A program made the position numbers and the translations under genes. Below the pieces are notes generated by a model. The model was not told the origin of the DNA. It saw only the letters and a list, made by a program, of their open reading frames with translations, and ran no database searches. A stretch of 64,000 nt of DNA from Candidatus Pacearchaeota archaeon (GTDB taxonomy: Archaea; Nanobdellota; Nanobdellia; Pacearchaeales; UBA284), in assembly GCA_026016245.1 (NCBI GenBank), contig CP061211.1, positions 567,285 to 631,284 of the forward strand. Reading direction: 5' to 3'. This document shows, one piece after another, positions 22,815 to 59,243 of this stretch; position 1 is the stretch's first letter, and every line of letters begins with the position of its first letter.

Positions 22815-24683
22815 ATGCAGCACAAGAAAGCACAAGTTACTATTTTTATAATAATTGCTGTACTTATTGTAGCTGTGGCTCTCTTCTCCTATTTTTTCAT
22901 CTTCAGACCGCCAGCAATTGTAATTCCTTCTGAAATTCAGCCTGTTGAAGCTTATCTTGTTGAGTGTGTTAGCGAGCAAGTTAAAGATGCTACAAGGATT
23001 GCTGGATTACAAGGAGGATATTTGGAAATGCCAGAGTTTGAACCTGGTTCTGAACAGCTTCCTTTTTCATCCCAGTTTGATTTTTTAGGAATACAAGTTC
23101 CTTATTGGTTTTATGTTTCTGGAAATAATCTAGCTAGGGAAAGAAAGCCTAGTTTGAAGGATATAGAAAAAGAGTTTGCTGATTATCTTAAAGAAAGAGT
23201 TGAGGAATGTAAGTTTGAGAGTTTTATTTTGCAAGGTTATGATATTGAAGTAGAAGGAAAGCCAGATATTGAAGTTAATATTAGAGCAAATTCAATTGAA
23301 ACATTAGTAAACTGGCCTATTGATATTAATTATAGAGATATTAATGTTCGAATTGTAGAACATAGGGTTAGTACTAAAACCAGTTTTGGCCAACTTTATG
23401 ATACTGCAAATAGAATTTTTGATAGTGAGCAGGAGAAGTTGTTTTTAGAGAATTATGCTCTTGATGTCTTAAGACTTTATGCTCCTACTACTGATATTGA
23501 ATTAAGTTGTGCTCCTAAAACCTGGTTTGTTAGTTCTGTTAGGGATGAGGTAAATAGTGCTCTTGAAGTTAATATCGCTGCTGTCAAGGTTTCTGGAACT
23601 TATTATGAATTAGACAGGAAAGAGGATGAGTATTTTGAGGTTGATGTTGGTGAGAGTATTGATGAGCAAGTGTATTTTCTTTATTTTAGGAATATGCCTC
23701 ATGTCTTTGAAGTTTGGCCTTCTGAAGATAATTTAATGGAAGCAGAACCTATTGGAACACAGCCTGGTCTTGGTATCTTAGGAACTTTAGGTTTGTGTTA
23801 TGTTCCTTATCATTTTGTCTATGATTTGAAATTCCCTGTTTTAGTTCAAGTGCTTAGGAATGGTGAGCTATTCCAGTTTCCTGTTGTGGTTGTAATTGAT
23901 AAAAATAGTATAAGAAATATGACTGCTGCTGAAACTCAGGAAATTGTGTTTGATTTATGTCAGCATAAAACACAGGAAGTTACAATATTCACTTATGATG
24001 AAAATACTCAGCCAATTGAGGCTAAGCTTGGATTTAAATGCTTTAATCAAATATGTGATTTAGGTAGGACAAGAATAGAGGGCAGTAAGGCTGTTCTTGA
24101 AACTAGAATACCCCAATGTTATAATGGATTTGTAGTAGCTAAGGCTGATGGTTATGTTACTAAAAAAGCTCCATCTCCAGGAATACAGACTTTTGTCATG
24201 AATGTATTCATGAGTCCTGAGCATGTTCTTGATTTAGAGGTTGGGGGATTGGGAAGCGGAGAGCATGCTACTGTAACTTTCACATCAGAAGATTATAGTG
24301 CTAGTGTTTATTATCCTGATCAAAAACAAATAATCTTGGCTGAAGGAATCTATAATGTATCAGTTTATTTGTTTAAAGAATCCTCAATTACTTTGGAATC
24401 TCAGAGAGTTGAAAAATGCATAGATGTTCCTGTTGGTGGTATTGGCGCTATATTTGGAATTATGCAAGAGCAATGTTTTGAGCTTGATGTGCCTCAAGAA
24501 ACTTATACTGATGTAATATTTGGAGGAGGTTTTGTTGAATTTTCTATAACTGAATCTGAATTAAGAGGAGCATCTAAAGTCAGCATTATAGCTCCTTCAT
24601 ATGATGTTCCAAAAAATCTGTTTGATTTAGGAGATGTTTATGGATTAATAGATGTCGGTGAAGTTCGAGTTTCAATAAAATGA
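22815..24683 (+). CDS. Membrane-anchored hypothetical protein, translationally coupled to the giant gene
   Basis: N-terminal transmembrane helix QVTIFIIIAVLIVAVALFSYFFIF. Its stop overlaps the next start in an ATGA at 24680-24683. Confidence 0.5.
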   Translation: MQHKKAQVTIFIIIAVLIVAVALFSYFFIFRPPAIVIPSEIQPVEAYLVECVSEQVKDATRIAGLQGGYLEMPEFEPGSEQLPFSSQFDFLGIQVPYWFYVSGNNLARERKPSLKDIEKEFADYLKERVEECKFESFILQGYDIEVEGKPDIEVNIRANSIETLVNWPIDINYRDINVRIVEHRVSTKTSFGQLYDTANRIFDSEQEKLFLENYALDVLRLYAPTTDIELSCAPKTWFVSSVRDEVNSALEVNIAAVKVSGTYYELDRKEDEYFEVDVGESIDEQVYFLYFRNMPHVFEVWPSEDNLMEAEPIGTQPGLGILGTLGLCYVPYHFVYDLKFPVLVQVLRNGELFQFPVVVVIDKNSIRNMTAAETQEIVFDLCQHKTQEVTIFTYDENTQPIEAKLGFKCFNQICDLGRTRIEGSKAVLETRIPQCYNGFVVAKADGYVTKKAPSPGIQTFVMNVFMSPEHVLDLEVGGLGSGEHATVTFTSEDYSASVYYPDQKQIILAEGIYNVSVYLFKESSITLESQRVEKCIDVPVGGIGAIFGIMQEQCFELDVPQETYTDVIFGGGFVEFSITESELRGASKVSIIAPSYDVPKNLFDLGDVYGLIDVGEVRVSIK

Positions 24684-37511: not shown

Positions 37512-37620
37512 AGCCCGGTAGTGTAGTGGTCAAATTCTCTAAATAAAAATTTTATTTATAGAAGACTAAGCATCCAAGGCTTTGGACCTTGAGACCCAGG
37601 TTCGAATCCTGGCCGGGCTA
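37512..37620 (+). tRNA. tRNA-Gln(UUG) with a predicted non-canonical intron of about 36 nt in the D-loop
   Basis: Acceptor AGCCCGG/CCGGGCT, D stem GTGT..GCAT, anticodon stem CAAGG/CCTTG with loop CTTTGGA, T arm CCAGG-TTCGAAT-CCTGG. About 36 nt (ATTCTCTAAATAAAAATTTTATTTATAGAAGACTAA) are inserted between the D-loop AGTGGTCAA and the 3' D-stem strand. Confidence 0.7.
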
Positions 37621-46993: not shown

Positions 46994-49900
46994 TTGATGT
47001 TAAAAGAGGATAATAGTAAAATCAACAAAGTAACTGCAATAATTTTTTTTATTGTGTTAATTGGACTAGTCTTTTTTATGTTCTTCATAAAACCTGTAAT
47101 CACTGCAAAAGCCATAGCTTTAGAAAAAGAATTTTTTATGCCAAATGAAAAAATCAAAGGGAATTTTACTCTGATTTTAAAAGAGGGCGAACTTATCCCT
47201 TCAAATACAAAAATTCTTATAGAATTGGATGGACAGCAACAAAGAGAGCTCACTATCAAGGAATTTATTGAACTTAGTAATCTTGATATAGAAGAAGAGC
47301 AGGGAGGTTTTTTTATACCTAAGACTAGAATTTCTGGGGCTGGCTTTGGATATGGAAAAGCAGGGCATTATGTAGTTTATCCAGATGTTGATTTTCAATT
47401 AAAAATTATCTCTCCAACAGAAGAAGAAGTAACAGAGATAGAAGAGCCAACAGAAGAAAGTACTGAAGAAAATATTACAGAACAAAACATAACTGAACAA
47501 AACATAACAGAAGAAAATAAGACAGAAGTTCCAGAAGAAAACATCACTGAAATTAAAGAAGAACCTACAGAAGAAGCAACAGAAGCAGAAGAAGAGCCAG
47601 CAGAAGAAGAGAATTCAGGAGAAAATGAAAATCTAGAAGAAGATGTTATAAACTCATTGTCTATTTTTGCTATCTTAAATAAATTTTTCAGTTTTTGGGG
47701 GGCATTTACAATAGTTGAAGAAAGTGGCAATGTAAAAATTATAGAAGCATCTTGTTCTTTGGATGAGCCATTTTATTATGAGTTAGGAGAGGGGGAGCAA
47801 GCAGAACTTATGGAAGGAAGTGTAAGAATAGATGGAGAAATTGTTAGAGATAATAAGGTTGATATTGATATTAAGGACGATGTTTTAACTGTTTCAACAG
47901 ATTATTTTGAAAGCTATGAAGGTTTTGGTGAGGCTTATCTTGGTGATGATTATGAAATCACCCTTAATTTAAATGTTCTTGATTTAAATATTGAAAAAGA
48001 AGGAACCCATACCTTAACTATAACTTTGGTTTATGAAGATGAAGAGTTAATGAATGCTAGTGAAGAAATTGAAGTGAAGCCAGAGAGTATAACAATTAAG
48101 ATTATTGATAAAGATGGAAATATTGAAGATGAAATTTTGGCTAGTTCTACAAAAATAAAAATAAAGATTAGGAAGATTGTTGTGGGGGGAGAGGAAGAGC
48201 ATGAAATTGAAATTGAAGATAATGTGATAAGTATAACTGGTGCAGCGATAATAGAAACTAAACAAGCACTGCCAGAATCTGAAATTATTTTTATTGATTT
48301 TCCAGACAACACAATTATCCAAATAGATGAACCAACAATCGAGCAAAAAGCTAAGGGTTTTGCAACAGAGGTTTTTGCTATAGAACCAGGCTCTGAGATT
48401 GAGATTGAAACTGCAACAATAACTCTTGAAAAATTTACAAGTGATACCATAGCTTCAATTTTATATTGTGAAGATTGGAATATTAATAATTTTAATTGTG
48501 ATGGCAACTGGATGAATTCTGGTTTAGAATTTTTAGATAATGGTACACATATAAGTTTTGAGACAGATCATTTTACTGCTTACATTGGAGCTGGAAATAT
48601 GACTTGCCCTTATTTTGCAAATGACAGTGTTATTTTAGTTGAAAGTGTTGCTTGCAATGGAACAGCTTTTATTATAAACAGCAGTAATGTTGAGATAGAT
48701 TGCCAAGGCCATACAATTAATTATTCTGCCACAACCTTAGGATATGGTATTAATAATACAGCTGGTTTTGACAATGTTACAATAAAAAATTGCATAATCA
48801 AACAAACTAATTTTAGTATAGCTTATGCTTATGGAATTTATTTAAAAAATGGAATTGTAAATATTACCATACATAATAATACCATTTTAACTTATGCTTA
48901 TGCAAGTTATGCTATATATCAAACACTTCCTTACACTGGCTCAGACAATATAACTGTTACTGACAATATTGTAAATGGGGGAATAAATCTGGGATATGTA
49001 CCAAATTGTACAGTTACTGGAAATAATGTAACTAATAGTTCATTTGTGGTGGGTGGTTCAGGGGACAGCCCTTATTGCCAAATTACAGACAATAATGTTA
49101 GTGGGGGAGATGCTTATTTTTCTGGGCCCTATCATAATATAGAAGATAATAATTTTTATGACATAGGATCTGTTATGATAGATGGGAGCCATATTTATTT
49201 TTCAGACAATTATATTTCTAGTAGTACAGATTCAGGAGATGGTACTTTAATTTTAGACTCATCAAGCATTACGAATAATACAGTATATAGCAATATAATC
49301 GTGACTTCAGGTGATGATGATAATGATGCTGTTTATCTTGATGGTGCTAATGACACAAACTTCAGTTATAATAATATAACCACTGATTGTGTTGATTGTG
49401 ATGGGATTGTGTGGGAATATCCTAAGGTCTTCAATTTGGCTTATAATAATATAACCACTAATGGAAATAACAGTTTTGGCTTAATGCTTTCATATGCTTA
49501 TAGTGATGTTAAAAATATAACTAATAATACAATAAAGACTTATGGGGCTAGTTCTGGGGGGATCTATTTGGAGACCACTTTAAATTATGATGGCCCTAGC
49601 AAGAATGTTTTTAGAAATAATATAATAGAGACTGCAAAAGGAATTGCATTTAATTTTTCAGAAGATTGTAATGATCCTTATGATGGTCATCCAAGTGATA
49701 TTGATACAAGCAATACAGCTGAAGGAAAGCCAATTTATTATTATTGCAATACAACAAGCACTTTAATACAAGACCTAGATGCTGGGCAGATTCTTTTTGG
49801 TCCTGTTGCAAATGATCCAAATATTGTTTTAGAGAATGTTTCAGCAGAAGATGGTATTTTTGTTTCTGATGGTGTCAGTAATTTGATAATAAGAGATTCT

Positions 49901-52900
49901 ACAATAGACACATCAAATCAAGAAAAAGTTGCTGGGATATATATATATTGGGGAGATAATATTAATATTTCTAATAATAATTTGATAAATAATTATTATG
50001 GTGTTTTTCTATCTGGCAGTTCTAATAATATAACCTCAAATAATATATCTAATAATGAATATGGTATTTTATTGAAGGGGAGTTCATATAGTTATATTTT
50101 ATCTAATATAATGGATTCAAATACAATCCATATTTTATTAAATTCAACTTTAGGAGGTCATATTGAGAGTTCTAACACAGTCTCCTTAAACAATCTTTCT
50201 GGAGGAGATTATGGGATTTATTTAAGTGATGAAGAAAATAATGATTTTGAAAACAATAAGATAGAAAATACTGATTATGGAATTTATATTTATGGAACTG
50301 TTTCAGAGCAAATAGGAGCCAATGCTTTTACAAACAATAATGTAAGTAATAGTTCTGTTTATGATTTTTATTTATATTATGTAAATACTCCTGGTTTTGG
50401 AAATGATCCTGTAATTAATTTAACAACAGGAAATGTGATGTCAAGTTTTGAGGCTTGGAATATTGCCTTAAAAAATACGACAAGCCCTGCTGCTGATCCT
50501 AGTGGATATGATAATATAAGTAAATATTTGAATATAACAAACAATTCAGCTGATTCTTGGGTATTTTTGAATATAAGTTATAATGAATCTGCTTTAGGAG
50601 ATATAAATGAATCAAGTTTGGAAATATGGAAGCATAATGGCTCATGGCATAATACTACTTTTTATACAACAAGCGGGGTAAATGAAGCTAGTGATTATGT
50701 TTTTGCTAACATTACCTCTTTCAGTATTTTTGCTCCTTTTGTAAAAAGCACAGGAGGTGATATAGATTCTTGCCAAATTCTTAATGAATCAGGAACTTAT
50801 ACACTTAATCAATCTGTTTCATCAAGCGGAACTTGTTTCACGATAGAAAATAATAGCATAACTCTTGATTGTGATGGATATACAATAAATTATTCAGCAA
50901 CAGAAAAAGGTTATGCAATAAACAACACTAATGGATTTGATAACGTGACAATAAAGAATTGTAATATAAAACAAACTTCAAGTTCTTATACACATGCTTA
51001 TGCGATATACTATAATAATAGTGTTAATAGCACAATATATAATAACATAATAACGACTTCAGGAACCTTTGGTTGGGTAATTTATCTTACTACAACCTCA
51101 AGCTTTAATATAACTAATAATAATATAACAACTTTAGGAGGAGATGGTGATGCAGTTTATCTTTTTTCGAGCTCAAATAATAACTTAACTAATAATAATA
51201 TAACAACTTTTGGGAGTGGTGGTTATGCACTTATTCTTTCCACAAACTCGAGTTTTAACAATCTAAATAATAATACAATTACAACTAATGGACCCGAGAG
51301 TTGGGGAATTCATCTTGCTTCAAACTCAAGCTTTAACACATTAATCAACAATACAATAAATGTAACGACAAACCCAGATGACAAAATAGCACTATATATT
51401 GATGGAAGCCATCATAATGTTATAGATGGTGGTTCAATCAGTGTAACATCATCCAATAATCAATATGCTTCTGTTTTAATTACTAGAAGTGATAACAATA
51501 TTATAAAGAACTCCTATATCTTCAGCGATTCAACTTATGGTCTTAGAGTTTATTGGACCGGAACAGGTAATACAACAATATACAATACAATAATCAATTC
51601 AACATGGGGCCCTGACATTATATACGACAACGATGTTGGTGGCTGGACAAATCTGACTAATTGTTCTTTTAATAAAAGTGATGTTTCATTTGGCTCAGGC
51701 TCAACTGGCTTAATAAATGTGAAATGGTATGTAGATGTCTATGTTAACAACACTTTTGGATATCCTATTTACTTAGCTCAAGTAGATTTAGTAGATACAA
51801 ACGGTAATACAGAAACAGCTATGACAAACACTTCAGGCTATACAGAAAGAGCAAATGTTACAGAATATTATCAAAATGCTACTGGAAGCTATACTTATAA
51901 TAACTATACTGCAAAAGCTTCTAAGACAGGATATTATGATTCAAGCAAACAAGTTAATTTAACAACAAATGCAATCAGGGATGATAATACGCAAGTTGTT
52001 TTAACTTTAACAAAACACTCTGGCGGCGGAGGCGGCGGAGGAACAGGTTATTGTGGTGATAATGCTTGTGATCCAGATGAAAATTGTTATAATTGTCCTG
52101 AAGATTGTGGAGAATGTTGTGGGAATAATATATGTGAGCCATTATATGGAGAAGATTATACAAACTGCTGGAAAGACTGCTGTTATCCAGAAGGAATAGA
52201 GATGCCTGTCCTGCCAAACAGAACTTGCTGTGCAAATTTAAATCGAGGAATAATTTATGATATGGGTTGTGTTGCTAATCAGAATGACCAGTGTGAAGGA
52301 TGTGAGCTTATCGGAAGTGTTGTTTGTGTAAATTGTGGTAATAATATCTGTGGTTTAGGTGAGAATTATTGTAATTGTCCTGAAGATTGTGTTGAAGCAA
52401 TATTAGATTGTTCACAACTACCTCCTTTGTTTGTAAATATTGAATGGGATTGGTGGCCAATAACTCCTCAAACAAAACTAAACTGGTATCAGATGCCCTC
52501 CCCAGATATAGAATTGTTAAGAACTGAAGTTTATAGTGCAGATAAATGTATAGGAAGTGAATGTAATTTTGTGTTAGAAGAAGTTGTTAATGCTCCGGCA
52601 AGTGAATGGTCAGCACATGTTTCTGAAAGACTTAAATTTTTCACAATTATAGGAAAAACAAAACTAGGCCAAGGAGAGTGTAAGCCTGAATATTATGAGC
52701 AGGGTGTTGGTAATAGCAATAAACCAGGATGGTATAATGCTTGTACTTTAGAGCTTTTAAAAGAAGAGACTTTAATGGTTGCAGAGCCAAGAGCTTATTG
52801 TTGTTATCCTGAAGCTGATAGTGAGGGTTGGTATAATGTTCAATGTGATCAGGTGAAGATACCAGAAAATTTAATAAGATATTCTGATTGTGAGGAAGGA

Positions 52901-53563
52901 GAGTATGCTTTATTATGTGATCAGACAAGTGATATTCTTGTAAAATTCACGCAAGATCTTGTTCATAATAAACAGATTGGAAGAGGAGAACAAGGTCAGA
53001 ACACTAGTGTTAATTGGATAGTTTATATGCCTTTTGAAAATATCACTAATAACACAGATTACTTGCTTAAGATTGGAGATATCGTGGATTATGTTGCTTA
53101 TTGGGATGCAGAAAAACAAAAACAATTAGGAAGTGCTAGAGGTTATAAGGCAGGAATCCCATTAATAACTACAGGTGCTTTTGAACTTGAATCAGGAAGG
53201 CCTTACTTTGTTTCTTCAAGTGAAAAAACAGATAGGATAACCTGGGTTGGAAGAATTCCTGAGCATGTTACTTTCCACTTAAAATATGTGCCTGGAACTT
53301 TTAGTGAAAATTATATGTCCTTACCTTTAGATACTTTTTTAAAGAAAGCAGTTGATATTTGTGATGCTTTAGGTCTAGGAGATGATGGGAGTGTTGCTAC
53401 TTGGGATCCAATAACACAAAAATATGTTAACGAGGAAGCATCAAGGTGTGGGTTTATTAGAAGCCCCATTGGGGGAAATAGTGCGCTTAATTTTGATTTA
53501 AATCCTGGACAAGTTTATGAAGTTGCAGGGTTAGAACAAGATATAACTTGGAAACAAGAATAA
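46994..53563 (+). CDS. Giant surface protein (2189 aa) with parallel beta-helix repeats and C-terminal Cys-knot-rich modules
   Basis: Signal/transmembrane AIIFFIVLIGLVFFMFFI. An acidic linker rich in E/T/N. Dozens of NNITT/NxT-containing beta-helix rungs (...NNTITTNG..., ...NNNITTFGSGG...). Two copies of the module C..L...G.Y.LN...C..I.N..ITLDCDG(H/Y)TINYSA. A Gly8 linker. CGDNACDPDENCYNCPEDCGECCGNNICE-type Cys-rich domains. Confidence 0.7.
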   Translation: MMLKEDNSKINKVTAIIFFIVLIGLVFFMFFIKPVITAKAIALEKEFFMPNEKIKGNFTLILKEGELIPSNTKILIELDGQQQRELTIKEFIELSNLDIEEEQGGFFIPKTRISGAGFGYGKAGHYVVYPDVDFQLKIISPTEEEVTEIEEPTEESTEENITEQNITEQNITEENKTEVPEENITEIKEEPTEEATEAEEEPAEEENSGENENLEEDVINSLSIFAILNKFFSFWGAFTIVEESGNVKIIEASCSLDEPFYYELGEGEQAELMEGSVRIDGEIVRDNKVDIDIKDDVLTVSTDYFESYEGFGEAYLGDDYEITLNLNVLDLNIEKEGTHTLTITLVYEDEELMNASEEIEVKPESITIKIIDKDGNIEDEILASSTKIKIKIRKIVVGGEEEHEIEIEDNVISITGAAIIETKQALPESEIIFIDFPDNTIIQIDEPTIEQKAKGFATEVFAIEPGSEIEIETATITLEKFTSDTIASILYCEDWNINNFNCDGNWMNSGLEFLDNGTHISFETDHFTAYIGAGNMTCPYFANDSVILVESVACNGTAFIINSSNVEIDCQGHTINYSATTLGYGINNTAGFDNVTIKNCIIKQTNFSIAYAYGIYLKNGIVNITIHNNTILTYAYASYAIYQTLPYTGSDNITVTDNIVNGGINLGYVPNCTVTGNNVTNSSFVVGGSGDSPYCQITDNNVSGGDAYFSGPYHNIEDNNFYDIGSVMIDGSHIYFSDNYISSSTDSGDGTLILDSSSITNNTVYSNIIVTSGDDDNDAVYLDGANDTNFSYNNITTDCVDCDGIVWEYPKVFNLAYNNITTNGNNSFGLMLSYAYSDVKNITNNTIKTYGASSGGIYLETTLNYDGPSKNVFRNNIIETAKGIAFNFSEDCNDPYDGHPSDIDTSNTAEGKPIYYYCNTTSTLIQDLDAGQILFGPVANDPNIVLENVSAEDGIFVSDGVSNLIIRDSTIDTSNQEKVAGIYIYWGDNINISNNNLINNYYGVFLSGSSNNITSNNISNNEYGILLKGSSYSYILSNIMDSNTIHILLNSTLGGHIESSNTVSLNNLSGGDYGIYLSDEENNDFENNKIENTDYGIYIYGTVSEQIGANAFTNNNVSNSSVYDFYLYYVNTPGFGNDPVINLTTGNVMSSFEAWNIALKNTTSPAADPSGYDNISKYLNITNNSADSWVFLNISYNESALGDINESSLEIWKHNGSWHNTTFYTTSGVNEASDYVFANITSFSIFAPFVKSTGGDIDSCQILNESGTYTLNQSVSSSGTCFTIENNSITLDCDGYTINYSATEKGYAINNTNGFDNVTIKNCNIKQTSSSYTHAYAIYYNNSVNSTIYNNIITTSGTFGWVIYLTTTSSFNITNNNITTLGGDGDAVYLFSSSNNNLTNNNITTFGSGGYALILSTNSSFNNLNNNTITTNGPESWGIHLASNSSFNTLINNTINVTTNPDDKIALYIDGSHHNVIDGGSISVTSSNNQYASVLITRSDNNIIKNSYIFSDSTYGLRVYWTGTGNTTIYNTIINSTWGPDIIYDNDVGGWTNLTNCSFNKSDVSFGSGSTGLINVKWYVDVYVNNTFGYPIYLAQVDLVDTNGNTETAMTNTSGYTERANVTEYYQNATGSYTYNNYTAKASKTGYYDSSKQVNLTTNAIRDDNTQVVLTLTKHSGGGGGGGTGYCGDNACDPDENCYNCPEDCGECCGNNICEPLYGEDYTNCWKDCCYPEGIEMPVLPNRTCCANLNRGIIYDMGCVANQNDQCEGCELIGSVVCVNCGNNICGLGENYCNCPEDCVEAILDCSQLPPLFVNIEWDWWPITPQTKLNWYQMPSPDIELLRTEVYSADKCIGSECNFVLEEVVNAPASEWSAHVSERLKFFTIIGKTKLGQGECKPEYYEQGVGNSNKPGWYNACTLELLKEETLMVAEPRAYCCYPEADSEGWYNVQCDQVKIPENLIRYSDCEEGEYALLCDQTSDILVKFTQDLVHNKQIGRGEQGQNTSVNWIVYMPFENITNNTDYLLKIGDIVDYVAYWDAEKQKQLGSARGYKAGIPLITTGAFELESGRPYFVSSSEKTDRITWVGRIPEHVTFHLKYVPGTFSENYMSLPLDTFLKKAVDICDALGLGDDGSVATWDPITQKYVNEEASRCGFIRSPIGGNSALNFDLNPGQVYEVAGLEQDITWKQE

Positions 53564-54427
53564 TTAATGAATAATCTTTATTGATTTCATAATTGTTTTT
53601 TCTGAATCTTCTGGTTTAAATTTCACAAAATAATGTCCTTGTGGCAAGTCCCCGGTATAAACTTTATTTCCCTTTACTTCTTTTACTTGACTTCCAATCA
53701 TATTATAAATATTAATTTTCCCAGATTGATTTAAATAGAAAAATTCATTAGCAGGATTTGGTCTAACATTTAACTTATCAACTTTTACTTTTTTTTCTAA
53801 ATTTTCTTTTATACTTACAGTATCAAGATTAAAACTTGCTAAAGTGTCAGCATCAAGGAATCTATGTTGAACTTCTCCTTTTGTAATTCCATATTTTCCT
53901 GGTGCTGCAGCTTCAATAACTACGGTGTCTTCATCAACTAATCCTAAAGTAGAAGCATCGAAATAAATTTCATATGCCCAACTTGAAGAAGTTATATCAA
54001 ATCTTCCATAAAGAGTATCTAAACCATCTTGTTTGAAACATTTTGCATCAACACTATCTATTCCGCCATCAGTAACATCTCTCACTGAAATTCCATAACC
54101 GCCAACAAATGCTGTTGGTTGTAAAGTAAAATTTCCTCTACAAAACCATTTTAAATAAGAAGTATCTGAAGGGGCATCAAACCTAACTAATCCACTATCT
54201 CCAGGAGAAACTCCCCATGCGTCTGGAACTGTCTTTACCCAGTAATTGGGAACAATCTGTCCAACCATTGTTTTTGCACTATCTAAACTATTAGGTTTGA
54301 AAAAAGTAACATTAGCGCTATCAGGGTAAGCCCACCCATCAAAGTTAGGTAAAGCATCAGCCAACTTAGGCAAGAGAAAAGTAACTCCAGCTAAGAATAA
54401 TGTTAATAAAGTGCTTTTTAATCCCAT
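53564..54427 (-). CDS. Secreted protein with a C-terminal domain resembling a Por/T9SS-type sorting domain
   Basis: Signal peptide LLTLFLAGVTFLLPKLADA. The last 70 aa (VRPNPANEFFYLNQSGKINIYNMIGSQVKEVKGNKVYTGDLPQGHYFVKFKP) match the Por_Secre_tail pattern (PNPA...iynm.G..v......dls.l..G.Yfvk). Confidence 0.5.
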   Translation of the reverse strand: MGLKSTLLTLFLAGVTFLLPKLADALPNFDGWAYPDSANVTFFKPNSLDSAKTMVGQIVPNYWVKTVPDAWGVSPGDSGLVRFDAPSDTSYLKWFCRGNFTLQPTAFVGGYGISVRDVTDGGIDSVDAKCFKQDGLDTLYGRFDITSSSWAYEIYFDASTLGLVDEDTVVIEAAAPGKYGITKGEVQHRFLDADTLASFNLDTVSIKENLEKKVKVDKLNVRPNPANEFFYLNQSGKINIYNMIGSQVKEVKGNKVYTGDLPQGHYFVKFKPEDSEKTIMKSIKIIH

Positions 54428-54530
54428 GTTTTTTTCAGGCCAATATGATATTTAAAGCTTTTGGTTTTACTACTTTTTAGGGGTTTCTTTTAGATATCTA
54501 CGAAAAATATTTATACCATGTAAGCTTATA

Positions 54531-54746
54531 ATGAAAATGGCTATGGAGAAAAAAACCCTTTTAGAAACAGAAAAAGAAAAAGCTTCACTAATTGGAAAAA
54601 TAGATAATAAGATGGCTTTTGATAATGAACATTGCAGTTGTCAATGTGCCTGTGATTGTGTTTGTATATGTGATTGTGATACATATGATTCCTTAAAACA
54701 AAATAAAGAAAAAGCTCTTGAAAAAAATTATTGGAAATATTCTTAA
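54531..54746 (+). CDS. Cys-rich candidate RiPP precursor peptide (71 aa)
   Basis: A polar/helical leader-like half (MKMAMEKKTLLETEKEKASLIGKIDNK), then the core HCSCQCACDCVCICDCDTYD with eight Cys alternating with single residues. It lies 25 nt upstream of a radical SAM/SPASM gene. Confidence 0.55.
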   Translation: MKMAMEKKTLLETEKEKASLIGKIDNKMAFDNEHCSCQCACDCVCICDCDTYDSLKQNKEKALEKNYWKYS

Positions 54747-54771
54747 TTGAGGGTAAGGGGGGAGATTTAAA

Positions 54772-56175
54772 ATGAAATTTAAATTATTTAGAAATCTCTA
54801 TTTTAAAAAAGTTAATTCTGATTATTGGGGAGTTTATCATCCATTTAATGAATATAAAATAATTTTTATTTCCTCTGATTTAAAAGCTGAACTTAAAAAA
54901 TTCCAAAATTCTGGAGAAATATTGGAAAATAATCCTTTTAAGAACGAATTAGAAAAATTAAAAAAAGAATATTTTTTAGTTCCAGAATTATTTAATCATA
55001 CAAAACCTATACAAACTATTAGAGAAGGATTACCAAAAAAACCAAGTATAGGATTATTATATCTTCTTTTAACAGATTCATGTAATTTAAATTGTAGTTA
55101 TTGTGCTATTGAAGAAAATTTAGAGAGTCTTTGTAAAAATTCTAAATTAAGAGCAAAGAACATGAGTATAAAAACTTGTGATAATGCAATTGATTTTTAT
55201 GTTATGTGTAAAGATGATAAATTACCAGAACATCGTGTGATATTTTATGGAGGAGAACCATTATTAAATGAAAAAGTTTTTAGACATGCTGTTTCTAGAT
55301 TGAGAAGTGAAGAAAAAAAAGGAAATTTAAAAAATTTGGGGATGGTCATGAATACTAATGCAACAAAAGTAAATGAAGAAATTGCAGAATTCTTTGCTAA
55401 AAATAAAATAAGCCCAGCAGTCTCATTAGATGGTTATAAAGAAATTCATGATTCTCAGAGAAAAAACTTAAGAGGAAAAGGAAGTTACGATGAAACTATA
55501 AGAGGATATAAATTATTTCAAAAGCATGGTATTCAACCGGGAATATCCTGTACAATTACAAAAAATAATATTGGAAAACTAGAAGAAATCGCAGAATTTT
55601 TTGTTGATAATCTTAATCCAAATGGAATTGGTTTTAATCTTTTACTTGATTTTAAAGATAAAATTAATCCTTTAGCAGTTTCTGTTAAAAAAGCAACTAA
55701 AGCAATGTTAAAAAGTTTTGAATTTTTAAGAGAAAAAGGTGTTTTTGAAGAAAGAGTTATGAGGCGTCTTGGAAAAATAATTAAAAAAGAAATGCATCTA
55801 AAAGATTGTGCTGGTTATGGTAGACAAGTTGTTGTTGCACCTGATGGAAGAATCGGTCCATGTCAGATAGCAATGGCTGCAGATTATCCTTCACCAGGAA
55901 ATGTCAATGATTCTAAAATGTTTGATCCCAATGATAATGAATTGTTCTTAGAATGGAATAAAAGAACAGCATTCAATATGTCTCAGTGTGAAGATTGCAG
56001 TTTTATAACAATCTGTGGAGGAGGATGTGCATATCAGTCTTATATAAAAACAGGAAATATATGGCAAGTTGATAAAAGAATATGTGAACATTGTAAGGAA
56101 TTAATAGATTGGGTTATTGATGATTTATGGAAAACTAAACAAAAAAATATTCAATATGAGACCAGATTGGGATAA
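54772..56175 (+). CDS. Radical SAM / SPASM-domain peptide-modifying enzyme
   Basis: CNLNCSYC is the Cx3Cx2C [4Fe-4S]/SAM cluster. FYGGEPLL. VSLDGYKEIHDSQR is the SPASM/twitch family box. The C-terminal CEDCSFITICGGGC matches the SPASM signature CxxCx5Cx3C. The N-terminal 85 aa before the rSAM core could be an RRE-like leader-binding domain. Confidence 0.8.
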   Translation: MKFKLFRNLYFKKVNSDYWGVYHPFNEYKIIFISSDLKAELKKFQNSGEILENNPFKNELEKLKKEYFLVPELFNHTKPIQTIREGLPKKPSIGLLYLLLTDSCNLNCSYCAIEENLESLCKNSKLRAKNMSIKTCDNAIDFYVMCKDDKLPEHRVIFYGGEPLLNEKVFRHAVSRLRSEEKKGNLKNLGMVMNTNATKVNEEIAEFFAKNKISPAVSLDGYKEIHDSQRKNLRGKGSYDETIRGYKLFQKHGIQPGISCTITKNNIGKLEEIAEFFVDNLNPNGIGFNLLLDFKDKINPLAVSVKKATKAMLKSFEFLREKGVFEERVMRRLGKIIKKEMHLKDCAGYGRQVVVAPDGRIGPCQIAMAADYPSPGNVNDSKMFDPNDNELFLEWNKRTAFNMSQCEDCSFITICGGGCAYQSYIKTGNIWQVDKRICEHCKELIDWVIDDLWKTKQKNIQYETRLG

Positions 56176-56749
56176 AGTTTATAAGAAAGGCCCCCATTGG
56201 GAAAGAAAACATTCTAAAGCAATAGAAGATTTTGTTAGATATTTAGAAAAAAGAGACAAAGTTCTTGATCTTGGCTGTGGGTCGGGCCGCGATGTTGTTT
56301 TTCTTGCTAGGAATGGATTTGATGTTTATGGAATAGATATCTCTAAAGAAGCAATTAAAAAAGCAAGAAATAAAATTAAAGAAAAAGGTTTGAAAGCTTA
56401 TTTTGATGTAGGAGATTTAACTGCCTTGAAATTTGAAAACAATTTTTTTGATGCTATTTATTCTAATGCTGTTTTAAATTTCACACTACTTCAAGAAAGT
56501 TGTTCTGAAATCTATAGAATATTGAAAAAAGATGGCTTAGCATATCTTATATTTCTTTTAGATTACATTCCTTTATTTAATGATGGTAAGAATAAAGAGG
56601 ATCATTCGTTTTATCCAGAAGATTTGATTTTACAAACTTATAAAAATTCAAAATTCAATATAATCTATAGCAAGAAATTCCTTTCACTAGATCTTGGGGG
56701 AGAAAAACCACATAAACATAATATTTTGAACTTGCTTTTAAAAAAATGA
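56156..56749 (+). CDS. Class I SAM-dependent methyltransferase
   Basis: VLDLGCGSGRDVVFLARNGFDVYGIDIS is motif I (GxGxG). Downstream motifs follow. The start overlaps the rSAM gene. Confidence 0.75.
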   Translation: MRPDWDKVYKKGPHWERKHSKAIEDFVRYLEKRDKVLDLGCGSGRDVVFLARNGFDVYGIDISKEAIKKARNKIKEKGLKAYFDVGDLTALKFENNFFDAIYSNAVLNFTLLQESCSEIYRILKKDGLAYLIFLLDYIPLFNDGKNKEDHSFYPEDLILQTYKNSKFNIIYSKKFLSLDLGGEKPHKHNILNLLLKK

Positions 56750-57510
56750 GGGGATTGCCGAAAATAGAATTTAAATTAGCATCTTTTAAATATAATTATC
56801 AAATTCTAAATTATTTTGTTTTTCATAAATCTCCAAAAATTAGAAAAAGAATTCTGAATGTTTATCCTGAATTAAGAAAAATTTATTCTATCAAAAAAAA
56901 TACAGAAAGAGATAAATTTATTAGAGAATTTTGTAAGAGACAATCATCAAAAAATTCTAAAGCAATAATGAAGAAAAAAGAAATTATCGATAAAGAATGG
57001 AGGAAAATACATACACCATTTATGAAGGCATTGAGCAAAGTTTTAGAAATAAAATGGCCCAACACAAAGATAATAGGTTATCTTTCAATAGTTCCAGTTT
57101 ATCCTAGACATCTCAATAATTGGAGTTTTTCTTTTTATTATAAAGAAAATACTAAAGGCATTATTGCTGTAATAGCACACGAAATATCCCATTTTTTATA
57201 TTTCAAAAAATTCAAAGAACTTTTTCCAAAAATCAATAAGAGAAGGTATGATATTCCTTATATAGAATGGTATCTTAGTGAAATGCTTGCTCCAATAATT
57301 TTAGCACATCCAAAAATCAAAAAAATAATTGGAAAGCGAATACAAAGAGGTTATATTTTGAGAAAAAGAGAAAAATTATTATATAGAAAACTTCTTTTAC
57401 TTTATAAAGATAGTTTGAAAAATAGAGAACCTTTTTCAGAATTCTTAAAGAAAACTTATAGATTAGTCAAAAGAATAAATAGAGGCTTTGTGGTTAAAGG
57501 CTTCCCATAA
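56746..57510 (+). CDS. Hypothetical protein with an HExxH motif (putative zinc metallopeptidase)
   Basis: IAVIAHEISHFLYF. The start overlaps the methyltransferase stop in an ATGA (translational coupling). Confidence 0.4.
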   Translation: MRGLPKIEFKLASFKYNYQILNYFVFHKSPKIRKRILNVYPELRKIYSIKKNTERDKFIREFCKRQSSKNSKAIMKKKEIIDKEWRKIHTPFMKALSKVLEIKWPNTKIIGYLSIVPVYPRHLNNWSFSFYYKENTKGIIAVIAHEISHFLYFKKFKELFPKINKRRYDIPYIEWYLSEMLAPIILAHPKIKKIIGKRIQRGYILRKREKLLYRKLLLLYKDSLKNREPFSEFLKKTYRLVKRINRGFVVKGFP

Positions 57511-57556
57511 ATTTTCTTCTCAAAACCTTTTTAAATCCACTAAGCATATAATAATA

Positions 57557-57988
57557 ATGGCAAAAAAGAGGAAAGCAAAAAGAAAGAAAGTTAAAACTAG
57601 AAGAAAAGTTAGAAGAGTGAAAACTAGGGCAAGGGCAAAAAGAGTGGCAGTAACAAAAGCACCTACAACAGTGCAATCAGCTTACACACTTTGTGTTGCA
57701 GGCGGAATAATTGTATTGATAGCTGGAGTTCTTGCTTTGTTTTTCAGCAGTGTATTTGCATTGACACAGATAGCAGGAACCCTTATTGACCATATAATTA
57801 GTTTGATATGTGGTGCTGTGTTGTTGATTACAGCATCATCAATTAAGAAAAGTCCAAAAAGCGCAGCAATTATAACTTTATTGTTTGGAGTTATTGCATT
57901 GATCTTTCCACCACACGGATTTATTGTTGGTCCAATCTTATCTTTGATAGGATCAGTAATATTGCTAGTAAGAAGAAGATTAGAATAG
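57557..57988 (+). CDS. Membrane protein with an Arg/Lys-rich N-terminus and 3 transmembrane helices
   Basis: MAKKRKAKRKKVKTRRKVRRVKTRARAKR, then helices (IIVLIAGVLALFF..., LICGAVLLITA..., IITLLFGVIALIF...). Start chosen at 57557 to avoid overlapping the upstream gene. Confidence 0.45.
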   Translation: MAKKRKAKRKKVKTRRKVRRVKTRARAKRVAVTKAPTTVQSAYTLCVAGGIIVLIAGVLALFFSSVFALTQIAGTLIDHIISLICGAVLLITASSIKKSPKSAAIITLLFGVIALIFPPHGFIVGPILSLIGSVILLVRRRLE

Positions 57989-57997
57989 AATTAAAAA

Positions 57998-59137
57998 TTA
58001 TTTCAGGAATTTAATTATTTCAGGAATTCTTAGAAGTTTTTCTTTTCCTGTTTTCATATTTCTTAGTTTAATTTTTCCTTTTTTGATCTCTTCTGCTCCT
58101 ATGAAAATTACAAAAGGAATTTTTTGTTTATTTGCATAATCCAGAGCTTTAGAAATTTTATCCATAATAAAACAAGATATATTTCTTTTCCTTAACTGTT
58201 CTGCAATTTTAATTGCTTCTTTCTCTTGTTTGATTGAAATAATAAGACATTTGATATTTTCAACTTTTATTTTTGTTATAGTACTTAATCTTTCTAGACC
58301 AAAAGAAATTCCTGTGCTTTGGATTCCATTGATAATATAAGAACCTCCCCCACCTATGCTTTCCTTAATCTTTTTCACTTTTATTTCAAAGACACTTCCG
58401 TTATAATAAGCCAAGCCGCGAGCAAGACTAGATAAGAATTTAACTTTTACGCCATAATTTTTGCAATATCTCTCTAACTCTTGAATTTCTTTGTATGCCT
58501 TATATTTCTTAAAGAAAGATTCAGGTTTTTTGAATAAAGTAAGGAGATTTTCTGCTTTGTATTTTTTCAGATTTTTCCTTACTTCTTGTTCTGAGAGCTT
58601 GTCTAATTTGTCTATTTCCTTAATAACCTGTTCTTTTTTCTTTATTCCTTCTTTTTCCAAAATTTCATTTATTAATTTTCTATTGTTTATGTAGATTTCA
58701 GTATCTATTTCCAATTCTTTTAGAATTTCTGAGAATAATTTAAGAATTTCAGCTTCATCTTTAGTTGTTGAGCCTATTACATCAACATCACACTGAGTAA
58801 ATTCCCTAAATCTAGCTTTTGATACTGGTTCATCCCTAAAAACTTCCCCGATTTGATATCTTCTATAAGGTAATTTTTTGTTTTTCGCCAGTCTTTTAAG
58901 CTGGAATGTTAATTCATATCTTAAAGCCAGCTTTCTTTTTCCCTTATCTTGAAGCTTGAAAATATCACTTATGATTTCATCTTCTCCTGCTTTTACAAAT
59001 TTTTCATACTCAATAACTGGAGTTTCAGCTGGAAGAAAGCCATAGGATTTGAATTTTTTTATTATGATTTCCTTGATTGCTTGTCTTTTCAGAGCTTCTT
59101 CTTCTGAAAAATCACGAAAGCCTTTTACTGTTTCCAT
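57998..59137 (-). CDS. hisS: Histidyl-tRNA synthetase (compact, 379 aa)
   Basis: GFRDFSEEE, LRYELTFQLKR, YQIGEVFRDEP and FREFTQCDVDVIG are class II motifs 1-2 and the HisRS signatures. A C-terminal anticodon-binding-like segment is present. Confidence 0.75.
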   Translation of the reverse strand: METVKGFRDFSEEEALKRQAIKEIIIKKFKSYGFLPAETPVIEYEKFVKAGEDEIISDIFKLQDKGKRKLALRYELTFQLKRLAKNKKLPYRRYQIGEVFRDEPVSKARFREFTQCDVDVIGSTTKDEAEILKLFSEILKELEIDTEIYINNRKLINEILEKEGIKKKEQVIKEIDKLDKLSEQEVRKNLKKYKAENLLTLFKKPESFFKKYKAYKEIQELERYCKNYGVKVKFLSSLARGLAYYNGSVFEIKVKKIKESIGGGGSYIINGIQSTGISFGLERLSTITKIKVENIKCLIISIKQEKEAIKIAEQLRKRNISCFIMDKISKALDYANKQKIPFVIFIGAEEIKKGKIKLRNMKTGKEKLLRIPEIIKFLK

Positions 59138-59170
59138 TTTATTTTTTACTTACCTCCTTTTTGCTTGGAG

Positions 59171-59243
59171 GGTGGTAGCTGGGAATCGGACCCAGACCAC
59201 TCGGGCCACAGCCGAGCATACAGACCACTATACGACTACCACC
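59171..59243 (-). tRNA. tRNA-His(GUG) with a genome-encoded G-1
   Basis: Reverse complement reads G-GTGGTAG...CTCGG-CTGTGGC-CCGAG...CTGGG-TCCGATT-CCCAG-CTACCAC-C. The 8-bp acceptor stem with G-1:C73 is diagnostic for His. Anticodon GTG. The D-arm pairing is not fully resolved by eye. Confidence 0.7.

Follow-up and report, generated by a model that had tools for sequence, protein, structure and literature searches.

A conserved pair of precursor and radical SAM genes points to a RiPP operon with an alternating-cysteine core in a Candidatus Pacearchaeota MAG

Do five adjacent genes in a Candidatus Pacearchaeota MAG make up a RiPP pathway, and what might its enzymes do to a peptide in which every second core residue is cysteine? 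The original prediction, made on a 64,000-nucleotide stretch of DNA (64 kb, hereafter the window), described a candidate RiPP cluster of precursor, radical SAM (rSAM)/SPASM enzyme, methyltransferase, HExxH protein and membrane protein. All five ORFs were found, consecutive and co-directional on the + strand of positions 54531-57988 (Table 1). The small ORF, the rSAM motifs and the pairing of the two genes all held, and the operon is real. We think it reasonably probable that the locus is a functional RiPP operon with the thioether-ladder pathway proposed below. The host, a tiny symbiotic-type archaeon, has an evolutionarily conserved operon for a modified peptide with an alternating-Cys core.

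Table 1. Coordinates of the genes and sequence features discussed in the text
Feature	Position	Strand	Basis or detail
MacB/FtsX and ABC ATPase pair	11594-13502		41 kb away
TATA-box-like element TTTATA, archaeal type	54509..54514	+	Read from sequence; 17-23 nt upstream of peptide starts 54531 / 54537
Precursor peptide, 71 aa (69 aa from M3)	54531..54746	+	ORF
Leader motif L-I-G-K-I-D, residues 20-25	54588..54605	+	L.GKI conservation
Precursor core, H-CSCQCACDCVCICDC-D	54630..54680	+	
Eight alternating cysteines, C35-C49	54633-54677		
RRE-like + radical SAM + SPASM maturase, 467 aa	54772..56175	+	Pfam, NCBIfam, AlphaFold, Foldseek, PDB profile
CX3CX2C of rSAM, C104/C108/C111	55081-55104		
SPASM cysteines of rSAM, C346, C364, C406, C409, C415, C419, C438/C441	about 55807-56094		
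Class I SAM-dependent methyltransferase, 197 aa from ATG	56156..56749	+	Methyltransf_25/11/31; ORF opens 56117
HExxH zincin-fold protein, 254 aa	56746..57510	+	Motif H145-E146-I-S-H149
ATGA overlap of methyltransferase and HExxH genes	56746-56749		
TATA-like TTTAAA	57530		22 nt from membrane-protein ATG
Membrane protein, 143 aa, polybasic N-terminus	57557..57988	+	Weak sub-threshold matches; ORF opens 57488

The TTTATA element would serve as the promoter of the peptide gene, and its spacing from the start codons, of which NCBI uses that of M3 (54537), suggests a leaderless or near-leaderless transcript. A strong ribosome-binding site, GGGGGGAG, can be read ahead of the rSAM ATG. The predicted short or overlapping junctions were borne out where the rSAM 3' end overlaps the plausible methyltransferase ATG by 20 nt, and where the methyltransferase and HExxH genes are coupled by ATGA. 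The plausible ATG of the membrane-protein gene follows a 46-nt gap. Databases call the peptide only 'hypothetical protein' and the rSAM only 'SPASM domain-containing protein'. The organism was confirmed to be a DPANN archaeon: its rSAM is 100% identical to a protein assigned to Candidatus Pacearchaeota, and two tRNA genes identified by Rfam, of 123 and 109 nt, are long enough for introns.

The leader of the precursor runs to about residue 33; the core and a 21-aa follower tail come after it. The eight cysteines of the core do alternate strictly, as claimed, and form the sole such run in the window. The peptide had no match in Pfam or NCBIfam, and a profile search of 1.84 billion representative proteins returned only six clusters. 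Twelve distinct homologues lie directly upstream of orthologous rSAMs, enzymes that are themselves only 43-50% identical. Across these 12 archaeal-type precursors the core consensus HCSC.C.CDC[VI]CIC is nearly invariant and L.GKI is kept in at least 10, and the codons vary synonymously (TGT/TGC, AGT/AGC, CAA/CAG, ATA/ATT/ATC). Retention of both motifs beside such divergent enzymes, with silent codon changes, suggests that the ORF is under purifying selection. In every contig read (L001-L007, L214 and L216), a small ORF sits directly upstream of the rSAM. The leader motif and core are the same as here in L001-L007 and L216; in L214, which has a more distant rSAM (P0009), a related G-I-L-G-N-I leader precedes a CxC-containing core of different sequence. 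The small ORF, whose conservation beside the rSAM had been set as a test of the original prediction, was thus present upstream in all close homologues examined. The precursor and the rSAM/SPASM enzyme are a conserved gene pair. That the small ORF is instead a chance or non-coding feature next to a housekeeping enzyme such as anSME is scarcely credible: the bland database annotations speak for it, whereas the conserved ORF, position and core, the synonymous substitutions, and the single occurrence of such a cysteine run effectively refute it, as do the scores of the anSME models, at about one third of cut-off, and the lack of any sulfatase match among the genes in 53564-59137.

The pairing extends beyond the archaeal-type loci. 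More distant rSAM relatives with upstream Cys-dense peptides occur in CPR bacteria, other DPANN archaea, Clostridia, Bacteroidales and spirochaetes. Of 77 species-representative loci, 50 had Cys-dense small ORFs upstream in the same orientation; the corresponding figure for a distant control region was 7 of 64. A leader motif of the form hydrophobic-x-G-[KN]-hydrophobic is also present in precursors from CPR, Bacteroides, Lachnospiraceae and spirochaetes. The substrate had been described as unusual; CxC-rich cores proved common across the rSAM clade, and it is the strict eight-fold alternation that is distinctive here.

The maturase has an RRE-like domain at its N-terminus (residues 1-90) and matched the Pfam Radical_SAM model at 63.7 bits. 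The Pfam SPASM model scored 17.3 bits, below its gathering score of 21.5, yet the seven-Cys SPASM motif is complete. Neither C104-x3-C108-x2-C111 of the radical SAM motif nor C346-x12-G-x4-C364 and C406-x2-C409-x5-C415-x3-C419 vary among 16 homologues, which bears out the predicted auxiliary-cluster residues. The sequence VSLDGYKEIHDSQR, previously read as the SPASM box, is actually a radical-SAM barrel motif common to anSME, and the SPASM domain covers approximately residues 346-441. The top NCBIfam matches were nearly all RiPP maturases and all fell below their cut-offs: FibroRumin 198, PapB 160 (cut-off 340), DynA 138, QhpD 130 (453) and SCIFF 117 bits (425). The AlphaFold model (pLDDT 91) aligned full-length with the structures of TigE, a cyclopropyl synthase, and CteB. 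This fold-level agreement supports the proposed N-terminal RRE, which the PqqD Pfam model did not detect. Foldseek placed TigE at the top, together with CteB, anSME, ChlB and SuiB; TigE, anSME, DynA, ChlB and SuiB are as close in fold to the rSAM as CteB. Among these relatives, anSME oxidizes Cys or Ser, and DynA, ChlB and SuiB form C-C, C-N or C-O links. In a PDB profile search the best solved relative was CteB (6e-46, about 20% identity), with the alignment beginning inside the N-terminal domain; in a single-sequence search it was anSME (3e-23). Orthology with anSME, the housekeeping identity against which the enzyme was to be judged, was rejected, as the model reached 127 bits against a 349-bit cut-off and no sulfatase partner was found in the interval given above. 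The enzyme has a single Cys, as CteB does, where anSME has C255 and C261, which is consistent with an open site on auxiliary cluster I.

The most likely product chemistry, judged by these relationships, would be thioether cross-linking at multiple Cys residues, of the kind that CteB, PapB and QhpD carry out. The L-I-G-K-I-D motif is probably the recognition sequence for the maturase's RRE-like domain, which would bind the leader through L-x-G-K-I. The radical SAM cluster would then split SAM to give a 5'-deoxyadenosyl radical, and this would take a hydrogen from an acceptor carbon within or just past the core, most plausibly of the conserved Asp, Val or Ile residues between the cysteines. A core Cys held at the open iron site of auxiliary cluster I would close the thioether, by the mechanism known for CteB, PapB and QhpD. 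Repetition along the eight-Cys ladder would yield a compact, multiply bridged peptide, to which the methyltransferase could add a methyl group, perhaps on a carboxylate or thiol, and from which the HExxH metalloprotein might cut the leader and/or the C-terminal tail.

The same operon could also support a different rSAM reaction on the Cys ladder: anSME-like conversion of Cys to formylglycine or thioaldehyde, C-C, C-N or C-O links, TigE-like cyclopropanation of Val or Ile, or epimerization. This is possible but unlikely. The single-sequence match to anSME, the position of TigE in the Foldseek list, the DynA score and the conserved Val/Ile of the core all lean towards it. Against this, precursors across the clade share cysteine and not Val/Ile or aromatic residues, cyclophane-type motifs, for which aromatic residues are required, do not occur in the core, a single Cys of the enzyme stands in place of anSME C255 and C261, all anSME models fall far below cut-off, and the genes in 53564-59137 gave no sulfatase match.

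Somewhat more remote is the reading in which the peptide chiefly binds metal or a cluster inside the cell, as a metallothionein-like ligand, metallophore or redox cofactor, with limited rSAM modification and most thiols free for Cu, Zn or Fe; we regard it as rather improbable. CxC repeats are a hallmark of metallothioneins, and a beta-strand would place all eight thiols on one face. The system lacks a conserved exporter or immunity gene and is retained in DPANN and CPR organisms with very small genomes, and rSAM/SPASM enzymes also make cofactors (PQQ, mycofactocin and the QHNDH gamma subunit, the last by QhpD, whose model is among those matched). However, the standard arrangement for a RiPP that is processed and released includes just such a leader motif, RRE-like domain and zincin partner, and the neighbouring genes include no conserved metal transporter or partner metalloenzyme. 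Metal binding would also be compatible with partial thioether formation.

The thioether pathway would draw on the HExxH protein for trimming, as had been suggested. This protein belongs to a zincin-fold family that lacks annotation and often supplies the third component, its genes lying next to related rSAMs (L006, L010, L012, L017-L019, L021, L022, L024, L029-L031, L049, L054 and L077); no homologue was detected in Lachnospiraceae/spirochaete-type loci. It had no sequence-level match to Pfam, NCBIfam or PDB families, including any peptidase family. The fold is gluzincin-like, the HExxH motif is kept throughout the family except in the L001 and L216 subclade, where the first His is Glu (EExxH), and the helix that follows carries an invariant Glu (E174/E179), which fits the third ligand of gluzincins. 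We consider it a probable Zn peptidase that removes leader and/or follower. It differs from M1-family and thermolysin-like gluzincins in its identity of only about 10%, its much smaller size (one domain of 254 aa, with a long helical stretch at the N-terminus), an HExxH-to-Glu spacing of 24 or 29 residues rather than 18-19, and the EExxH subclade. The hosts of these systems are mostly anaerobic DPANN and CPR organisms, which makes an O2-dependent step less likely. Some HExxH proteins of RiPP clusters are alpha-ketoglutarate/Fe oxygenases (PMC12636437), and an Fe(II)/alpha-ketoglutarate oxygenase that hydroxylates core residues, such as the conserved Asp, is an unlikely alternative to a peptidase here: none of 13 family members matched the alpha-KG-HExxH model (TIGR04267 / IPR026337), the structural score to such oxygenases (ChlH/ChlB-HExxH, BpmH, PflC) was lower than to true peptidases, and the invariant Glu suits a gluzincin instead.

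The class I methyltransferase (about 80 bits to its Pfam models) is supported as an accessory tailoring enzyme, in line with the original prediction, by its overlapping junctions and by methyltransferases beside or fused to related rSAMs. In other loci the two genes that flank it here are immediate neighbours. Its recurrence is sporadic: methyltransferases adjoin related rSAMs in L049, L076 and L016, the first a Parcubacteria locus with the same four-gene set in another order, and P0118 is an rSAM-methyltransferase fusion encoded beside a CDCICYCNCDC-type precursor, but the closest archaeal loci (L001, L004, L006 and L216) lack the gene. The enzyme is only 25% identical to the rSAM-fused one. 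Its nearest solved relatives include 6uak, deposited as 'SAM dependent methyltransferase LahSB'; LahSB is a lanthipeptide methyltransferase.

The membrane protein, proposed for export or immunity, is a doubtful member of the system. Its Pfam and NCBIfam matches were weak and sub-threshold, no homologue was found in about 90 related loci, and the TTTAAA within the preceding gap may give it its own promoter. The predicted MacB-type exporter does exist in the window, but its distance leaves membership of the operon unsupported. With no transporter or immunity gene demonstrably linked to the operon and no dedicated exporter evident, the product may act intracellularly or exit by an unlinked route.

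Among known systems, anSME (PDB 4k37) shares the rSAM/SPASM core, including the S-x-D-G-x-K-E-I-H-x-x-x-R motif, but lacks the N-terminal RRE-like domain, its alignment starting at query residue 91, and differs in the cysteine arrangement and sulfatase partner described above. The SCIFF/ranthipeptide and sactipeptide maturases (CteB, PDB 5wgg; PapB; and QhpD of quinohemoprotein amine dehydrogenase) are alike in combining RRE, radical SAM and SPASM domains with three [4Fe-4S] clusters. PapB and QhpD join Cys to Asp/Glu side-chain carbons, and Asp is conserved between cysteines of the core here. The PapB, SCIFF and QhpD models are nevertheless well short of their cut-offs, the precursor matches no SCIFF model, and the core has donors and putative acceptors at every other residue in place of CX3D repeats or a hairpin with donor and acceptor halves. 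By sequence, the nearest curated family is FibroRumin (NCBIfam TIGR04135, Cys-rich RiPP target, and TIGR04136, radical SAM maturase), which is bioinformatically defined and for which no published characterization was found. No curated model scores higher on the rSAM than TIGR04136 (over residues 57-454), the gene order is alike, with peptide(s) directly upstream, the FibroRumin leaders M-L-G-N-I or L-F-G-K-I resemble the one seen here, and CxC repeats dominate the cores of both. In contrast, the rSAM reaches only half of the 400-bit cut-off, the archaeal precursors have no TIGR04135 match, and FibroRumin loci carry two paralogous precursors with acidic-Trp tails where this locus has one precursor. 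The strict eight-fold Cys alternation, HExxH partner, methyltransferase and archaeal host also set the present locus apart. With enzyme and peptide both below the FibroRumin cut-offs, the operon forms a new branch within an already recognized type of radical-SAM peptide pathway.

The five co-directional open reading frames of the original prediction, for a precursor peptide, a radical SAM/SPASM maturase, a class I methyltransferase, an HExxH protein and a membrane protein, were all present where they had been placed. Their positions are collected in the table below, with those of neighbouring features and of features in related loci. Reading of the junctions located a TTTATA box 17–23 nt 5′ of the peptide start codons and a strong GGGGGGAG ribosome-binding site ahead of the maturase ATG. 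The maturase and methyltransferase genes overlapped by 20 nt, and the proposed ATGA coupling of the methyltransferase and HExxH genes was seen as an overlap in the junction sequence. The membrane protein had been put forward as an exporter or immunity factor. No homologue was found in any related locus, and its ATG was preceded by a 46-nt gap with a TATA-like TTTAAA, so that it may be separately transcribed. A MacB-type exporter does exist in the window but lies 41 kb away, and was rejected as a part of the system at that distance. Inclusion of either protein is unsupported, and neither was counted in the system.

Positions of the cluster, of neighbouring features in the window and of features in related loci (L, locus)
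Feature	Position	Strand	Remarks
Precursor peptide	54531–54746	+	71 aa; NCBI start at M3
Cysteine core of the precursor (C35–C49)	54633–54677		
Radical SAM maturase	54772–56175	+	467 aa
Methyltransferase	ORF opens at 56117; plausible ATG at 56156	+	
HExxH protein	56746–57510	+	254 aa
Membrane protein	ORF opens at 57488; plausible ATG at 57557	+	
tRNA-His gene	59170–59242		1.2 kb downstream of the cluster
Divergent upstream gene	53564–54427	-	287 aa; C-terminal Por_Secre_tail / T9SS type A sorting domain
Giant ORF	46994–53563	+	2189 aa; NosD / right-handed beta-helix repeats, Cys-rich C-terminal region
Giant ORF	24680–32368	+	2562 aa; peptidase M23 domain
tRNA gene	20948–21070	+	123 nt
tRNA gene	37512–37620	+	109 nt
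Archaeal-type precursor	L001 3783–3998		
Mobile and addiction elements beside homologous clusters	L001 6112–7026; L006 3004–3429; L004 6614–7173		
APH-like kinase-fold proteins	L014 5885–6622; L092 5894–6628; L215 5302–6042; L041 5868–6527		Sister DPANN clade
Sulfotransfer_2-family gene	L004 5944–6537		Woesearchaeota
Maturase–methyltransferase fusion P0118 and its precursor	L091 421–3368		JGI contig; fusion 756 aa, precursor 141 aa
Cluster with ATP-grasp enzyme	L089 4001–6252		Parcubacteria contig

The core of the precursor was the sole run of eight alternating cysteines within the 64-kb window. Co-occurrence of such a peptide with the maturase in related genomes, as predicted, was borne out in all five homologues whose contigs were read (P0003, P0004, P0005, P0008 and P0009; 43–50% identity between the maturases), each having an ORF of 65–80 aa on the same strand directly upstream. 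Twelve distinct precursors could be aligned, with the consensus L-x-G-K-I(D) ... (E)H-C-S-C-x-C-x-C-D-C-[VI]-C-I-C-[DG]. The peptide beside P0009 fell outside the twelve: its leader reads G-I-L-G-N-I, and its core, though it contains CxC, has another sequence. Within the conserved core, DNA differences were synonymous (TGT/TGC, AGT/AGC, CAA/CAG, GCC/GCT, ATA/ATT/ATC). A core kept while its DNA varies in this way bears the mark of selection on the protein, and the precursor peptide is real. In the archaeal-type precursors (such as that of L001, P0122, P0124 and P0139) the core was often followed by a tail with a duplicated [AG]-[ND]-L-Y motif (ANLY...GDLY) and with aromatic residues at its end. 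The tail of the window peptide differed, ending in WKYS, in common with P0140. Such tails may supply cross-link acceptors or may be cut off.

Among called proteins, members of the precursor family were very scarce: 6 clusters came out of an exhaustive profile search over 1.84 billion cluster representatives, and only 3 relatives out of a word-indexed protein search. Most members were recovered through maturase neighbourhoods, with further peptides added by the protein searches. The precursor peptide matched no Pfam or NCBIfam model. When metagenomes were scanned for the degenerate pattern TGYNNNTGYGANTGYRTNTGYATHTGY of the core, no genuine precursor stood among the matches listed, nearly all of which were (TG)n-type low-complexity DNA translating to VCVCVC, and probably eukaryotic. 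Literature searches did not find a description of this peptide family; the sole CxCxC paper found deals with an MftC-like group (PMC10288494).

The maturase carried the radical SAM motif C104-N-L-N-C108-S-Y-C111 (CX3CX2C), invariant in 16 homologues, and belonged to the superfamily by its PF04055 score of 63.7 bits (gathering threshold 29.5). The seven-cysteine SPASM set, which binds two auxiliary clusters (CX9-15GX4C ... CX2CX5CX3C ... C), was complete: C346-X12-G359-X4-C364, C406-X2-C409-X5-C415-X3-C419 and C438/C441. The first six of these cysteines were invariant, as were the first ten of the combined radical SAM and SPASM motif in the 16 homologues. The SPASM cysteines aligned with the auxiliary-cluster cysteines of the anaerobic sulfatase-maturing enzyme anSME and of the SCIFF maturase CteB. 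The predicted SPASM domain was thus upheld by its cysteines but not by its profile, PF13186 reaching only 17.3 bits against a threshold of 21.5. As the motif is complete, the low score reflects divergence rather than absence. The stretch first taken for the SPASM box, 'VSLDGYKEIHDSQR', is actually a radical-SAM barrel motif common to anSME.

Seventy-three NCBIfam families matched the maturase, and the top ones were nearly all peptide maturases. The best of the 73 was FibroRumin TIGR04136, from a curated but experimentally unstudied pair of peptide and maturase families, with 198.3 bits (cut-off 400). Scores for the others were 160 for PapB NF047865 (340), 138 for DynA, 130 for QhpD, 127 for anSME TIGR03942 (349), 118 for CcpM and 117 for SCIFF TIGR03974 (425). 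None of the cut-offs was reached, and the maturase therefore constitutes a separate family in the RiPP-maturase part of the SPASM group. Orthology to anSME with a sulfatase partner, an outcome that would have undone the original prediction, was rejected on the TIGR03942 score, far below cut-off, and on the extra 90-residue N-terminal domain; no gene in 53564–59137 had a sulfatase match in Pfam or NCBIfam. A scan of viral contigs returned only distant partial maturase matches (23–36% identity over parts of the protein), and nothing in it suggests a virus-borne system.

The family profile found CteB (PDB 5wgg) at 6e-46, with an alignment beginning inside the N-terminal extension. In its entire length the AlphaFold model of the maturase (pLDDT 91) could be superposed on TigE and CteB, both of which bear a RiPP recognition element (RRE); next came anSME, ChlB and SuiB. 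Ahead of the barrel, residues 1–90 were modelled (pLDDT > 90) as four strands (2–5, 10–13, 18–23, 29–34) followed by helices 35–45, 57–65 and 78–86. An RRE is a leader-binding winged helix-turn-helix of three beta-strands and three helices with detectable PqqD homology. The fold supports the predicted RRE, but the PqqD-like Pfam model PF05402 gave no match in six N-terminal domains, even at E ≤ 10. The domain is best described as RRE-like, a reading that the modelled fold supports and does not prove.

Taken together, the peptide is very probably the substrate of the radical SAM enzyme in a RiPP operon. The leader would be bound by the N-terminal domain of the maturase, and an acceptor carbon would lose hydrogen to a 5′-deoxyadenosyl radical. 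The resulting radical could then be captured by a cysteine held on auxiliary cluster I to give a thioether, and this step would be repeated along the cysteine ladder. Methylation and proteolytic trimming would come after cross-linking. In the alignment with anSME, a single cysteine of the maturase stood where anSME has C255 and C261, as is the case in CteB, and the sequence is consistent with a three-cysteine auxiliary cluster I with an open iron site. In CteB, the open iron site on this cluster binds the substrate cysteine. The sacti-/ranthipeptide class is defined by thioether bonds from Cys sulfur to an alpha-, beta- or gamma-carbon in the mature peptide; for a place in that class, the three-cysteine, CteB-like site is the one piece of indirect support. 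Thioethers are favoured because the auxiliary site resembles that of CteB, because cysteine alone is shared by every precursor in the clade, and because PapB and QhpD were among the top models and conserved Asp residues lie between cysteines (C-D-C ... C-D-C-D). PapB and QhpD are Cys-to-Asp/Glu thioether synthases. The rival is a different radical SAM chemistry on the same ladder, for which it speaks that TigE, anSME and C–C/C–N cross-linkers are equally close in fold to the maturase, and that no member of the clade has a known product. Thioether chemistry specifically is therefore a tentative assignment, with a chance somewhat below even. The RiPP operon together with the mechanism as set out here is, as a whole, moderately probable.

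The HExxH protein belonged to a family in which H145, E146, H149, E174, W175, S178 and E179 were invariant. Only 14 homologues were detectable by word-indexed search, and sequence searches of Pfam, NCBIfam and PDB gave nothing significant. The protein has the features of a zincin/gluzincin: HExxH on a helix, a third-ligand Glu on the next helix and a thermolysin-like fold. HExxH proteins of RiPP clusters were recently found to be oxygenases (PMC12636437), and for this reason an oxygenase rather than a peptidase was kept as a rival. No family member matched the alpha-KG HExxH model TIGR04267 / IPR026337, and a gluzincin is what the invariant Glu of the next helix would suit. A family profile search found homologues beside related maturases, mostly directly downstream (L006, L010, L012, L017–L019, L021, L022, L024, L029–L031, L049, L054 and L077). 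L001 and L216 had a divergent copy with EExxH. Other homologues lay beside a different radical SAM/SPASM enzyme with a Cys/Gly peptide (L090), outside any RiPP context (L088), and in the Parcubacteria contig L089, beside an MvdD-like enzyme of the ATP-grasp type with a small peptide of 49 aa. The last is a graspetide-type RiPP cluster, which suggests that RiPP pathways of different chemical classes make use of the zincin-fold family.

The methyltransferase was a generic class I enzyme (Methyltransf_25, 80.4 bits against 27; SAM-binding motif LDLGCGSG). All NCBIfam matches were far below their cut-offs, and equivalog-level assignment was not possible. Among its nearest solved relatives was 6uak, deposited as 'SAM dependent methyltransferase LahSB'. 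LahSB is a lanthipeptide methyltransferase. The gene was absent from the closest archaeal loci; in the window it separates two genes that elsewhere adjoin each other, and it overlaps both of them. Methyltransferases adjoined related maturases in three loci (L049, L076 and L016), the order in L049 being methyltransferase–precursor–maturase–HExxH. In P0118 a radical SAM/SPASM enzyme and a methyltransferase were fused, downstream of a precursor of 141 aa whose core reads A-C-D-C-I-C-Y-C-N-C-D-C-V ... C-D-C-S-V-C-N-C-D-C-N-C. A very similar precursor occurred in the Clostridia locus L009. Because the fused domain was only 25% identical to the window methyltransferase, recurrent recruitment is indicated rather than orthology. 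The fusion is accordingly weak as a Rosetta-stone link and supports methylation as a recurrent accessory step only.

A family-alignment scan of one genome per species gave 80 loci, many from CPR/Patescibacteria, four from DPANN genomes, and others from Clostridia, Lachnospiraceae, Bacteroides, spirochaetes and further groups. Of the 77 usable loci, 50 had a small Cys-dense ORF immediately upstream in the same orientation, against 7 of 64 for a control region ~2.6 kb downstream of the maturase match start. Many of the peptides shared a hydrophobic-x-G-[KN]-hydrophobic leader motif, with cores of CxC or CxxC units. As positive controls for the FibroRumin peptide model TIGR04135 ('FibroRumin family radical SAM-modified Cys-rich RiPP'; cut-off 45 bits), the paired peptides of Lachnospiraceae bacterium C10 (L036) scored 52 and 68 bits, and the paired spirochaete peptides were visibly of the same type. 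The window and L001 peptides gave no match, and the archaeal and CPR peptides tested were all below threshold. No published mention of FibroRumin or of TIGR04135/TIGR04136 was found in literature searches. The archaeal operon therefore forms its own branch within a large clade, one known bioinformatically and unexplored experimentally.

Related loci varied in their accessory genes. In a sister DPANN clade (Nanoarchaeota, Woesearchaeota; maturases 32–41% identical), precursors of the form T-C-E-x-M-C-G-G-G-x-S-C ... C-G-R-C-G-x-C-S-C-A were accompanied by a conserved downstream APH-like kinase-fold protein, which replaces the HExxH protein; phosphorylation may be the accessory step there. In the Woesearchaeota locus L004, which lacked HExxH and methyltransferase genes, a Sulfotransfer_2-family gene lay two genes downstream of the maturase. 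Its product may take over the tailoring in this locus, or it may have no connection with the pathway. Homologous clusters were flanked by an IS240-type DDE transposase, a Y1 transposase and a PemK/RHH toxin–antitoxin pair. These elements, and the tRNA-His gene near the window cluster, hint that the module moves horizontally.

Other features of the window were recorded alongside. The sorting domain of the divergent upstream gene scored 32.4 bits in Pfam (threshold 27) and 29.6 with TIGR04183 (23). Such domains are normally linked to type IX secretion in Bacteroidota and are unexpected in a DPANN archaeon. The two giant ORFs probably encode surface or host-interaction proteins, which are typical of DPANN genomes. 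Two tRNA genes were found by Rfam and missed by ARAGORN, and their lengths suggest archaeal introns. This agrees with a DPANN archaeon as the source, as does the maturase, which is 100% identical to a protein from a Candidatus Pacearchaeota MAG.

The comparisons establish a conserved precursor–maturase pair with a frequent zincin-fold partner. Systems of this general kind, in which an RRE–radical SAM–SPASM enzyme modifies a Cys-rich peptide, are already known. New are the DPANN host, the strict eight-fold alternation of cysteines, the rare precursor family and the zincin-fold partner, which is unannotated and which CPR bacteria share. This partner family accompanies different types of RiPP maturase, radical SAM here and ATP-grasp in one CPR locus. 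With antiSMASH, a 2025 survey counted clusters of the ranthipeptide and sactipeptide types across DPANN genomes (PMC12144867). According to the same survey, only two archaeal RiPPs, lanthipeptides from Haloarchaea, had been experimentally validated by earlier work; archaeal radical SAM-type clusters were predicted in bulk and, like archaeal RiPP products beyond lanthipeptides, remained uncharacterised. Through the locus, DPANN archaea are connected with a large clade of CxC-peptide systems, unstudied as yet, that is well represented in CPR bacteria. It offers a compact four-gene target (peptide, maturase, methyltransferase and metalloprotein), suited to heterologous expression because comparative evidence defines its boundaries and its leader/core architecture. 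One solved member would annotate many loci, the sole curated relative, FibroRumin, being without a known product.

A bolder reading, which we consider unlikely, is that the strictly alternating ladder is modified in a pattern unseen in RiPPs and that, with its unrecognised zincin-fold partner family, it marks a new RiPP class shared by DPANN and CPR, probably through horizontal transfer. The product might be a contiguous ladder of adjacent-residue thioethers, or a thiolate-rich metal- or cluster-binding cofactor. If so, a class common to both ultra-small episymbiont radiations could mediate host interaction or metal/redox handling.

Among known systems, the archaeal operon is most readily compared with the SCIFF/ranthipeptide and FibroRumin pathways, which it resembles in its way of working. 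However, neither its enzyme nor its peptide reached the threshold for membership in any curated family that was tested. SCIFF and PapB systems act on SCIFF- or CX3D-type precursors, whereas the core found here, in a precursor outside all NCBIfam models, is built on CxC.
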